Positions 22,375-61,588 of a stretch of DNA of 64,000 nucleotides are shown here, piece after piece. Where the stretch lies: contig OZ024755.1 in the NCBI GenBank assembly GCA_964016885.1, positions 29,078,001 through 29,142,000 of the forward strand. The letters are read 5' to 3'. The notes beneath the pieces are model-generated. The model was not told where the DNA came from, searched no databases, and saw nothing but the letters and a program-made list of their open reading frames with translations. The DNA comes from Eledone cirrhosa (lineage: Eukaryota). The first letter of the stretch is position 1; every line of letters starts with the position of its first letter. The translations under genes were made by a program, and so were the position numbers.

Positions 22375-22533
22375 AACGAAGGAAATGTGGTAAGGAACCA
22401 GGTGGACCATAACGCACCAAAGTACTCAATACTTGAGGTAGTAGAGTGGGTAATAGGAACCAGTAAGACGGCTAATTCTCCGAATTAGCCGTCGAAACGG
22501 CTTGAGCTCAGCTGTCGGGGTCTTACTGGTTCC
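22375..22533. mobile_element. PLE-like fold-back insertion, family B
   Basis: Tail end aacgaaggaa on the left, ...gttcc-(TA)n on the right; carries HHR 3' half GAAAcggct-tgagctc-agctgTC gggg. Confidence 0.8.
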
Positions 22534-22807
22534 TATATATATATATATATATATATATATATATATATATATATATATATATATATATATATATATATAC
22601 TGTGAGTGAGATTCATGTATGTTAAGTAAAGGCAATAAAAGTGAAATTAAGTGAAATTGCATAGAAGACTGCAGTTCTTCTGCTTCAAGTCTTACTGCAA
22701 CGCGGCTATAAAACATGTCAAAGCTTTTAACCAATAAAAATGATAATAAATGAATATATATTGTGGAAACGTTTTTTAAGACAGCAATATATTTGAGAAA
22801 TGTAATA

Positions 22808-22957
22808 ATTGTTTGTGCTTTTGGCTCAAGGCCAGCAATAAACCAGTGTATTACTGGTACTTTATTTTAAGGCAAAGTTAACCTCGGCGGGATTTGAACT
22901 CAGAATGGCAAGGTCCGTAACTCTATGCTTCAAAGCAAGGCGTCCGACCCTCTACCG
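22808..22957 (-). mobile_element. tRNA-derived SINE (main family), internally deleted
   Basis: SINE body; TSD-like aaatgtaataat / aaatgtaattat. Confidence 0.8.
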
Positions 22958-23171
22958 AAATGTAATTATGAGCTGTTGTTAATAATAGGTTTAACGTGAT
23001 ATATTCAGAATATAACTTATACTACTATTCCACGCCGTTTTATGGTATTTTGCATTTTAGCTACACAATGTATATATATATACACACCACCACGCATATA
23101 TACATATATATATATATATATATATATATATATATATATATATATATATATATATATATATATATATATAT

Positions 23172-23312
23172 AGTAATAATAATAAATGTGAAGACAAAAA
23201 TCCAAAGAGGTCTCGATAAGGATAAATATTTATCAAATATAAGTTTAAACAAAGCAAGTTTAAAGCAAGATTAAAGTTTAAGCAAAGAATCGATGCTTTC
23301 ACCCTTAACGGG
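23172..23312 (-). mobile_element. Family C PLE-like 3' end (HHR 3' half plus tail)
   Basis: Homologous to the arms of 57249-57720 and to 31043-31186. Confidence 0.75.
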
Positions 23313-23339
23313 TAGCGAGAGAGAGAGACAGATAGAACA

Positions 23340-23728
23340 CACAAGCAAATAATGACAAGTAAATAAACATAAATAAATAAATGAATAAAAACACGCACAC
23401 ACCCGGAAGTAACGCATGCGCAAACTAAACACACAACGCACAAAACACAAAAACTAGATGGTGTAGGACAGAACAAAAGGGAAACACAAAATAAAAGCCT
23501 AGTCACTAAGGAGATCACAGAATGTGTGACGAAAGAACTGTGACAATATATAAACAACCATCCGGTTATCAAACCGACTAGCCAACCGGAAATTTATAAT
23601 AAATTGAAGTGAAAATCGACAGGTGCGTGTGTTGTTATTGGCATCATGACCCTCCCAAAGTACAACATTATCTGTTACAACGCAGGTTTTCTGATCAGAA
23701 ATCTTGCAAAACAAATTCAAAAACGAAA
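23340..23728 (+). mobile_element. Family D PLE-like terminal repeat with degenerate HHR (23501-23544)
   Basis: agtca CTAAGGA g atcaca..tgtgac GAAA gaac TG tgac; homologous to 44348-44645. Confidence 0.75.
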
Positions 23729-23815
23729 TATATATACAATATATAGAGTTATAAATTCAAACAGTCTTTTACAATTAAATAGCTCAAAGAAAGAAGTATT
23801 TCTGAGCCGTGAAAT

Positions 23816-23984
23816 ACAAGTTAATATAAATTAATATATGATAAACACTAATACAATCATATAAGTGTTTGTATTGCAACTGACCAAGTTAGCTAGATTC
23901 AATCTAGCTAACTTGGTCAGTTGCAATACAAACACTTATATGATTGTATTAGTGTTTATCATATATTAATTTATATTAACTTGT
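23816..23984. repeat. Perfect palindrome, 84-bp arms, 1-nt centre
   Basis: acaagttaatataa...gctagatt C aatctagc...ttatattaacttgt, centre at 23900. Confidence 0.95.
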
Positions 23985-24048
23985 GTATAAATATATATAT
24001 AATATATATATATATATATATATATATATATATATATATATATATATG

Positions 24049-58004: not shown

Positions 58005-58334
58005 TATATATATATATATATATATATATATATATATATATATATATATATATATATATATATATATATAGAGAGAGAGAGAGAGAGAGAGAGAGAGAGA
58101 GAGAGAGAGAGAGAGAGTATGCGATTCTTTGCTTAAACTTTAATCTGTTATTTTTATATATATATATATATATATATATATATATATATATATATATATA
58201 TATATATATATAAATATATACTTGTGTACAGATATGTTTGCATACGCAATAACAAAATATAAACAAACGTATTTATTTCACGACGCTCGATAAGGATAAA
58301 TATATATCAAATATATAAGAACCCTAGAGCAAAT

Positions 58335-58363
58335 CCCGAACAACGCCGGGCCATTCTGCTAGT
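58335..58363 (+). mobile_element. Helitron-like 3' terminus
   Basis: cccg..caacgccggg hairpin then ctag-t; similar end at ~52335-52351. Confidence 0.5.
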
Positions 58364-58958
58364 AATACCTAAGGCTCTTAACCCCGCACCCCGGCCTGAC
58401 TTACCGGCGGTAGGCTTACCATTAAGTAACGTGGAATAACACCATCTCCCACCAGGAAGCTGCACAGCGTATATTCAGACGGGCCTACCCCGCTGTATTC
58501 TTCCTCTTGGCCAGACTGCATTTTTGGTAATCTTACGAACCTGTTGCCTAAACCCGAATAACTTCTTAGACGATTGATCATATAAACATACAACTTCGAT
58601 CCAAATTGACATTATTTTTCTAGGCCTTCAAAATCGCACCCAACGTGCCCCCTTGCTTTAGTTATACCTGTGTGTGGTCTGTAACGACTTTACCAATAGT
58701 CTATCATATTCACACCTTAACACGGCTTCATTTATACTGAGTTGACCAACCCTGCATATGTTAATTCCTTTTAATTAATAAAAAAAAAAAGGGGTTTTCC
58801 ATAGCTGGTACTGGTCATAAGTTAGACAGTAAACTTTATACTTGCACCGTAATTTCCTCCTATACTCCTTTAACATTTAACTTTAATATGCATGGCGATG
58901 TAAAACTATTATTTTACCCTATTAGGGTCTATAATTAAAAACATTGCCTTTAATATCT

Positions 58959-58998
58959 GCCTCCGACGAGCCCCATTGGGCGAAACATGTGTAAGAGC
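58959..58998 (+). ncRNA. Minimal hammerhead variant (U4C)
   Basis: ct CCGACGA gccc-catt-gggc GAAA c atgt g TA ag; ~55-nt tail then (TA)n. Confidence 0.72.
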
Positions 58999-59699
58999 TA
59001 TATAAAGATATCTTTTAATGGCTTGTAACTCTTTCATTAATTCTTTTGCTTATATAAATATATATATATATATATATATATATATATATATATATATATA
59101 TATATATATATATATGTTTATATGTATATATGTTTATATATGTATATATGTATATATATATATATATATATATATATATATATATATATATATATATATA
59201 TATATATATATATGAATTCAAATGGAGTTAAATACTTCTACGATTTTAAGGTGGTATTACTAGCTTTCACCTATCATTTATAGACTCTATATTTCGCTAG
59301 GTAGTTCGACATTAGATGAGATATATCACTAATTATTTCCTGACAGGGATTGGTATTTTTATTTTGAGATAGTTTCGTCATACAGTGTTAGTATTCATAG
59401 AATTAACGGGATTTCATTTAACGCCTACCAAGGCCCTGGTTAATAAGTACAGTATAGTAGAATGTTGTGACTTTTGTTATTTCGATAAGACATTTACAGC
59501 GTAGATAAGATTACATAGGTTCGTAGAAAATTGGACACCAGCCAAGTCTTTCAGTTGGAAGAACTAAATTTCTCTAGATTCTGTCACTGGTAATTTGCTG
59601 CATATGGTCCATTGATTGTCGCATCATTCCACTGATGATCTACAATAATGGTTCTGTATAACTAATAATGCTTTTGCTTGAAGTGGAATCAGAAACAAT

Positions 59700-59830
59700 C
59701 CCACTTACATTAAAAAGACCTACCCATTCGGATTATATACTGTGATTTATACGCCATTATGACGTCAGGATAGCTACCATATTTTCTCTCAATTCTTTAG
59801 ATTCCTTCAGAAACAGTTTCAATTTGAAAA
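59700..59830 (+). pseudogene. Possible decayed PLE RT thumb motif
   Basis: KRPTHSDYIL*FIRHY resembles YRKPTH.D.YL.F.S.H; lies just upstream of the family F terminal repeat. Confidence 0.4.
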
Positions 59831-60044
59831 GATATTAATATTTTAATATAAATTATATCAGAATATGCTACTGACATCTGTGTAATATCTACCATAACCG
59901 AATCTCTTCAAATCTCTATAAATATCTGACAGATCAACCAAAAAACTACTGAAATGGTTATCTTGACATATGCTAGGCTATATAAAAATATTTTCTAGTA
60001 TATTTCTCATATAGACGAGACAATATTGTTACACAGCTGAGCAC

Positions 60045-60313
60045 ATCCAAGGAAAACTTCAACCGTTAAGGTATGTTCATTGGCTATGTCAACATTTATA
60101 AAACGCACTTTGTATTTTATCTGATGAAAGCGTACCAAAGTTTTTGGTACTCTTGAAATATATATAATAGAATAAATATGGTTTAATAAATATAGTTTCC
60201 ATTTATTTAATATCATTGAATATTATACTCCAGAAAACCTGTCGACTGCTCTGAATCAGTTATAAACATTTATATCTCTTGAATTACCAACAAATTGAAT
60301 ATCCCTTCTGCTT
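60045..60313 (+). mobile_element. Family F terminal repeat in colinear form with HHR (60114-60170) and full tail
   Basis: CTGATGA at 60121, GAAA at 60155, tail ending cccttctgctt-(AT)n. Confidence 0.85.
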
Positions 60314-61393
60314 ATATATATATAGTTCAAGGATACAAAAAAAACAGAGGTACAAAAAGTCTCTTGGTTTCGCACTTTATATGGAAAAGAGGAAAGAAAG
60401 TTCGAAGAGTCGGACGTTAGCCATTCTTCAGGTTTACAAAATGTACAGGTGTACAAAGATTGCTTATTGAGTAACATTTAGAGCCCGTGAAAGTGAAGGG
60501 TTTAGCTTAAGATAATCGAGTTTCATGTCGATATATATCTGATAAACTTAGTGAAAATGATACAGAAACCTGATTCAAAACGCAATTGAATTTTCTAGGC
60601 TATTGAATTTCCTGCGTGTTTTGCAAATAGAAACGTGTAGGTCATGTTCGAATATTGGATACCTGACACTGATTTGATATAAGCGATTAGTTACAGGTGC
60701 GTAAGGGAGCATTGGAGCTACAATAATGGTAAAAATGTATCACTTTATAGAAGACTAAATGTGTAGATGAAATGAAATTATTTTAAACAGGGATTACCAG
60801 ACAACCGGAGATTTCGTACCTCTATATAATAGATATGTAAAATATATAATGATAACATAAAAATCAATAAAATTAGAAAATCATTAAAAGGTTCTATAAC
60901 AGGAAATGATGCGAAAAACATGTTTTATTCATATTATTATAAGGAACAGTTTTTTTGTTGTTTTTTTTTCAATATAGACTTAATGGGAGATTTCCATTAA
61001 ATTTTATGGTAATGAACTGCGCAGAAACTCTACTAGAATAAATAAATAAATAAGATATATAATTATATAAATACAGTTTTGAATTATTGTTTATTTATAT
61101 ACACATTTAATTAAGTGGGCACAATTATTCGTATAGGGAAATATACACTCGTGCGGTAAATAATTCATTGTTCAAAGGTGGCATGTTCTAAGAGTTAATG
61201 GATGTATGATGTTTGAATTAAATCAACTCTGCAGATTCTATACAATATTACTAGTTTTCTTTCCCATACAGATATAATTTTCCTTTGTTTTCAGATTGGA
61301 TACTCACAGGCAACACACACAAACACATGCACACGCACACAAACATATATATATATATATATATATATATATATATATATATATATATATATA

Positions 61394-61588
61394 TAGGAAA
61401 GGAGTCAGGACCCCGATGGCTGAGCTCCGGCCGTTTCGACAGCTAGATTCGAACTGATTTCGGATCTATCTGTCAGAGCTCAGCCGTCGGGGTCCTGACT
61501 ATTTTCGTATTACCCACTCTACTACCCTAAGTATCGAGTACTCTGGTGCGTTATGGTCCATCTGGTATCTTACCACACCCCCTTCGTT
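61394..61588. mobile_element. Family B fold-back insertion (diverged)
   Basis: Same two termini as the other B copies; (TA)n on both sides. Confidence 0.85.

Follow-up and report, generated by a model that had tools for sequence, protein, structure and literature searches.

The window analysed here, a 64,000-nt stretch of the genome of Eledone cirrhosa (contig OZ024755.1), carries four short insertions of one repeat, family B, in each of which two arms of the element lie head to head between (TA)n flanks. We consider it probable that these are 5′-truncated insertions into (TA)n of a likely Penelope-like element (PLE) pseudo-long terminal repeat (pLTR), each arising from two primings on one uncut RNA, one at the end of its tail and the other at an internal site 80 nt upstream. 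The two discrete ends, the inverted arms, the (TA)n target, a hammerhead topology and read-through of the hammerhead cut site are all directly seen.

An earlier note on this DNA had proposed that the four copies share a pair of different termini and differ in their internal junctions, and this is borne out on both counts. In all four, one end reads ...CCTTCGT before (TA)n and the other ...TTCC before TA, each outer end being a 3′ end of the element, and no two internal junctions are alike. Measured from the GTC of the predicted cleavage site, the full end is 97 nt away in copy 3 and 99 nt away in copy 4, which gives family B a tail of 80 nt. Chance would produce such agreement among four copies about 1 time in 700, even if ends were limited to the nine TA sites downstream of the cut. 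Shared flanks, which would have pointed to segmental duplication, are absent: when 700 nt on either side were compared, nothing matching adjoined the junctions, and the copies are not segmental duplicates. The cross-matches comprised an interspersed repeat lying 270-619 nt away, in opposite orientation, from copies 1 and 4, together with two matches of 32-37 nt. The whole inserts measure only 158-248 nt, and all family B matches within the window are confined to them. Their parts are as follows, with coordinates exact to the 1-2 nt by which the TA junction is ambiguous.

22376..22533: copy 1, two-armed inverted insertion in (TA)n
22376..22469, minus strand: tailed arm of copy 1, the 80-nt tail (22376-22455) and 14 nt upstream of the short site
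22467..22493: junction of copy 1, a perfect 12-bp hairpin with a 3-nt loop
22482..22533, plus strand: tailless arm of copy 1, with GAAA, helix III and GUC (predicted cut 22516/22517), ending 17 nt further on
24051..24298: copy 2, inverted insertion with arms that do not overlap
24051..24235, minus strand: tailless arm of copy 2, the sole arm with a whole predicted hammerhead
24062..24159, minus strand: predicted type I hammerhead of copy 2, predicted cut 24068/24067
24160..24164, minus strand: helix I extension, GGAAU, whose predicted partner is the final 5 nt of the short end, GUUCC (24051-24055)
24236..24298, plus strand: tailed arm of copy 2, only the last 63 nt of the tail
42417..42617: copy 3, almost perfect palindrome around an 11-nt spacer (42552-42562)
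42417..42551, minus strand: tailed arm of copy 3, tail at 42417-42496
42563..42617, plus strand: tailless arm of copy 3, identical at 54/55 nt to the matching part of the tailed arm, ending 17 nt past GUC
61396..61587: copy 4, divergent variant in which 2 nt are inserted between the cut and the short end
61396..61455, minus strand: tailless arm of copy 4, ending 19 nt past GUC
61476..61587, plus strand: tailed arm of copy 4, tail at 61508-61587, preceded by an imperfect fold-back copy of the 5′ end of the other arm

Beyond its junction hairpin, the tailed arm of copy 1 skips helix III, apparently through a repeated GTC. Segment 24220-24235 of copy 2 may be junction filler, and read depth drops there. 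The element sequence that directly follows TTCC is TAT, and the short end therefore has 2-3 nt of microhomology with the target in all four copies; microhomology of at least 3 nt occurs at 6% of random positions in the family B tail. No stable structure was found in that tail (z -0.1 to -0.4).

The two-ended pattern is real and widespread. Four public runs were aligned to the copy 2 segment 24037-24312, namely the contigs of X1, the contigs of X4 (from another organism) and the restriction site-associated DNA (RAD) libraries X10 and X11, in each of which about 24,000 of 12.5 million reads aligned. In X10, 4054 reads cross 24048 into the TA flank and 4262 join the tail, compared with 9178 reads at 24056, and the corresponding figures for X11 are 3713, 4527 and 8993. 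Stopping at the short end (41-44%) and reading on into the tail (46-50%) together account for 91% (X10) and 92% (X11), the numerators and denominator coming from positions that are close to each other but not the same. RAD reads begin at an AATT inside the element, presumably the library enzyme site, and hence give a biased sample of loci. Among the X4 contigs, a depth of 108.9 of 236.4 (46%) runs into TA at the short end. Through the tail (24247-24286) read depth is flat. Upstream, the depth of X1 contigs drops from 4.2 million (24077-24086) to 0.12 million (24117-24126); most family B copies appear to be truncated within helix II, and divergence in the helix II loop may contribute. Among the matches listed from the runs, the TA end is seen in 83 X1 contigs, a further 165 have TA-like loose ends at 24063, and inverted junctions resembling those of copies 1 and 2 are present in other libraries, which rules out an assembly artefact as the source of the structure.

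How such inserts might form can be set out as a sequence of steps. A reverse transcriptase (RT)-endonuclease supplied in trans would nick both strands of (TA)n; one nick would prime at the tip of the tail, and from the other nick priming would take place at the internal TTCC/TAT site, aided by 2-3 nt of pairing. The cDNA from the internal site would mostly stall in helix II, and would either join a short tail cDNA directly, as in copy 2, or fold back, copy itself and then join, as in copies 1, 3 and 4. Two nicks priming on one RNA, with the internal cDNA sometimes folding back, would account for both arm geometries. Indeed, the tailed arm stops before the internal site, with the other arm starting there, in copy 2 (63 nt), in two family D inserts (25 and 34 nt) and in one family F insert (16 nt), as expected from twin priming on one RNA. 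The tailed arms of copies 1, 3 and 4 extend beyond the short site, and what they carry past it mirrors the short arm; the arms of copies 1 and 3 begin at the same 5′ point, and private variants are common to both arms of one insert at 14/14, 54/55 and 28/32 positions (the last including the +2 indel). In LINE-1 twin priming, too, a second nick primes internally on the same RNA and gives rise to an inverted arm, although the internal site of family B is fixed, not scattered.

Twin priming on one RNA would leave one tailed and one tailless end in each insert. Tailed and tailless ends are paired in 4/4 family B copies, and together with families C (2/2), D (2/2) and F (1/1) the verified count is 9/9, for which P=0.002 under independent coin flips. 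Seventeen inserts were classed, a second copy confirming the tail only for families B, C, D, F and A (E, G, H, I, J, K and L are not verified), and the counts exclude an unclear candidate for a family A short end at 58154. We infer that the two ends of an insert are probably paired. In the main text of PMC11167929, both strands are cut and extended and two RT start sites in vitro bracket the tail; hammerhead mutants leave insertion unchanged, uncleaved RNA is the main template and a dimer is predicted.

Several observations weigh against twin priming on one RNA. The palindromic family A insert at 57250-57719 (the family also occurs at 23173, 31045 and 39113) has two identical ends and breaks the pairing rule; counting it, 9/10 inserts are paired (P=0.011), and the least favourable count is 14/17, with the single-copy palindromes at 17261 and 27258 possibly symmetric too. 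The families were picked by eye, the roughly 1:1 read ratio fits pairing and independence alike, and the variants shared between arms could stem from later gene conversion. The same start sites were seen on both strands in PMC11167929, which would allow an independent choice at each end. In the X1 contigs the depth across 24048 is just 18,935 of 577,005 (3%), a low value that we suspect reflects private mismatches of copy 2 which make short contigs fail alignment. Lastly, no open reading frame (ORF) for RT or GIY-YIG is linked to family B, whose copies span 158-248 nt.

The whole hammerhead motif occurs in copy 2 only. It consists of a 6-bp helix I, the core CUGAGAA (24153-24147), a long helix II closed by G-C, GAAA, a 6-bp helix III and GUC. 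The type I topology is thus complete (GAAA, NUH, helices I-III and G10.1-C11.1), with self-cleavage a prediction, but the core departs from the canonical CUGANGA with its 3-8 pair in placing C3 opposite A8. A core of this kind cleaves poorly. The substitutions C3G and G8C abolish hammerhead activity (PMC11167929), and U3-A8 is a known PLE hammerhead variant (PMC4209133). The compensating U3 occurs in 77/462 (X10) and 56/324 (X11) RAD reads, that is, 17%, and by contig depth in 52% (X1) and 70% (X4); no G8 variant is among those listed from the runs, and a minor G8 form may exist. Any hammerhead match arose in 1/2000 shuffles of copy 2, and equally strong matches at 0.07 per shuffled window. 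An Rfam search of the window and of copy 2 gave no hammerhead match, and the hammerhead fold of copy 2 lies 3.1 kcal/mol above its free minimum.

The earlier note had placed the short end about 17 nt from GUC and took this fixed spacing to suggest a mechanistic link between ribozyme and second priming. The distance is indeed 17 nt in copies 1-3, but in copy 4 a 2-nt insertion moves the end to 19 nt from GUC while leaving it at the TAT motif, and the spacing does not support a link to cleavage. It is very improbable that ribozyme cleavage fixes the second priming site at a set distance, even with 17 nt in 3/4 copies and with one family C insert that ends about 15-18 nt past its GUC, at a (GATA)n run. 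Each of the four short arms spans the cut and continues for at least 35 nt past it, with no drop in read depth there; the RNA template was therefore uncut at that point, and since priming at the short end of a cleaved RNA would yield a cDNA of only 17 nt, a cleavage ruler fails. The cut-to-short-end distance also differs among the other families of the window, with cut sites assigned by eye or pattern (27 nt in C, 36 nt in E, a single copy, 54-56 nt in D and 128-145 nt in F), and for the anole element PMC11167929 places the cut at +26, with RT starting mainly at +111-118. The C3-A8 mismatch of copy 2, compensated in only a minority of RAD reads, tells against it as well. Two landmarks on one consensus are always a constant distance apart, and the 17-nt spacing is probably a by-product of both being fixed in one sequence. 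Could the fold, as opposed to cleavage, position the second start, with priming at the first free base past an extended helix I? In copy 2 the pairing of GGAAU with GUUCC brings helix I to a close exactly at the short end, in free and constrained folds alike (chance about 2%, post hoc), an X4 contig variant retains GGAA upstream (loose end at 24157), and PMC11167929 suggests that protein bound at the RT start site aids ribozyme folding. We nonetheless regard this as doubtful: the lead comes from one copy, post hoc, folded without its tail such that the sequence stops at that very point, the short ends of families D and F are not at the end of a predicted enclosing helix, and the free-energy cost of the hammerhead fold must also be borne. 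Less likely again is a broader scheme in which PLEs always insert by twin priming on a single RNA, giving one tailed and one tailless end per two-armed insert, with the often crippled hammerhead of family B (C3 opposite A8) serving as a landmark and the base of helix I fixing the second start. If true, PLE hammerheads would gain a role that needs no cleavage.

The chief rival to twin priming on one RNA is endonuclease resolution of a fold-back intermediate. Here the short end would be made at the DNA level, by priming at the tail tip and fold-back of the second strand, followed by an endonuclease cut or by microhomology annealing at the internal TAT. PMC8557442 ascribes the tail to endonuclease-mediated resolution, and PMC3846280 infers self-priming from junction palindromes; copies 1, 3 and 4 have hairpin junctions, and the short-end microhomology described above recurs in every copy. 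Yet the tailless arms of copies 1, 2 and 4 include sequence missing from the matching tailed arms and are not simple copies of them, strict microhomology was not found at the short ends of families C (3181) and D, and two further TAT sites in the tail are without a step in read depth, all of which makes this route unlikely. That last point also rules out microhomology by itself as what produced the short end. We give almost no credence to an origin other than retrotransposition, whether as segmental duplicates, fold-back assembly artefacts or a TA-targeting miniature inverted-repeat transposable element. Insertion at TA and the palindromic structure would suit such an origin, but the flanks are unrelated, the junctions differ, the same ends and junction types appear in the raw reads of other samples, and the two ends are different sequences, not the terminal inverted repeats of such an element or of Tc1-mariner.

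Other inverted insertions lie in the same window. Family C (3017-3181, 57814-58004) comprises hammerhead-bearing inverted inserts with tailed and tailless ends, the 3017 copy having in its tail the motif GTATTGAGTAC in common with family B. Family D (39254-39440, 55322-55539, 60045-60312) has a minimal-type hammerhead and a 94-nt tail, and in two inserts just the tail tip is joined to the tailless arm. Family F (23458-23727, 41462-41511, 44349-44644) includes one 50-nt insert made of two ends only, and at 23173-23727 a family A end is joined to a family F end. More fold-back palindromes by microsatellites, several with hammerhead cores, are found at 7916-8057, 17261-17344, 23816-23984, 27258-27623, 30416-30796, 38899-39088, 41756-41924, 51906-52226 and 55585-55867, and a canonical minimal hammerhead at 8880 (plus strand) is not linked to family B. 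The same is true of PLE-like RT/GIY-YIG remnants with a Cys-rich linker at 34344-35257 and 16618-16920 (both minus strand); the GIY-YIG-like remnant at 34344-34637 (score 0.95, the family being on 16% of the cluster's members) has no Pfam match. A Pfam search of seven ORF pieces returned nothing at E < 0.04, and a PDB search nothing useful. Two ORF pieces at 10718-11746 (minus strand) have the look of a broken transposase by eye, with no Pfam match. A 608-bp repeat occurs at 9330-9937 and 44930-45537 (two copies 96% identical, oppositely oriented and flanked by TA runs), a 51-bp tandem array of about 12 copies at 21311-21935 with a related stretch at 47965-48196, and an abundant repeat resembling a short interspersed nuclear element at, for example, 13365-14041, 16013-16196, 33279-33622 (an inverted pair) and 62018-62206, a repeat whose look would fit a cephalopod host.

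Judged from its sequence, family B behaves like a PLE pLTR, and its two-ended structure is explained by known PLE biology. The likeness to a pLTR with and without its 3′ tail, as the earlier note had it, holds for the two defined ends (PMC8557442, PMC3846280; RT starts in PMC11167929), whereas the priming of both on one RNA is our favoured reading. A tail at one end only is found in 4/4 copies and in the reads, the arrangement is inverted and 5′-truncated with junction palindromes, and the type I hammerhead of copy 2 has the right topology, with a variant core that lies below Rfam detection. Pattern scans of metagenome, viral and prokaryote genome contigs gave no matches in any of the three. 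An inverted 5′-truncated copy and a tail at one end are standard PLE features in PMC8557442 and PMC3846280, where the endonuclease-containing PLEs Penelope, Neptune, Hydra and Naiad share with family B the inverted truncated copy, a tail often at one end only, junction palindromes and a preference for (TA)n; they differ in that whole family B inserts are only 158-248 nt, and the hammerhead argues against Naiad. An octopus repeat annotation reports recently active Penelope families, and its main text does not contain the word 'ribozyme' (PMC13282606). Literature searches, covering papers outside subscription, found none on twin priming with PLEs or on G8A/C3U, and none that apparently describes family B.

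Among the hammerhead-bearing relatives, the Schistosoma Cercyon PLE has the U3-A8 core that recurs as a covariant in family B reads, and opposite-strand hammerhead pairs 100-700 bp apart have been noted (PMC4209133). Family B differs from it in not being minimal, with a helix III of 5-6 bp and without an additional base to separate A9 from G10.1; many of its copies appear to have C3 with A8. Non-LTR retrozymes, as described in 10.64898/2026.07.22.740005, are likewise short non-coding repeats with type I hammerheads, related to pLTRs; they are head-to-tail tandems, whereas family B consists of inverted truncated pieces mostly without the 5′ half of the ribozyme, and head-to-tail units with a full hammerhead each were not found for it within the window. 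The abundant family B could serve as test material for the integration of PLEs and the part played by their hammerheads, its complete inserts of 160-250 bp placing both ends and the junction within one read. The closest parallel is PAc, the Poseidon element of Anolis carolinensis (PMC11167929), in which two 3′ ends bracket an optional tail, the target is AT-rich, the hammerhead lies upstream and the template is uncleaved. The tail of PAc is 30-40 nt as against 80 nt in family B, its short end lies at least about 45 nt from the cut as against 17-19 nt, and family B is unlike it in having long helices II and III and no ORF seen; the pairing of the two ends within one insertion, which is absent from what the main text of PMC11167929 reports for PAc, is seen in all four family B copies.

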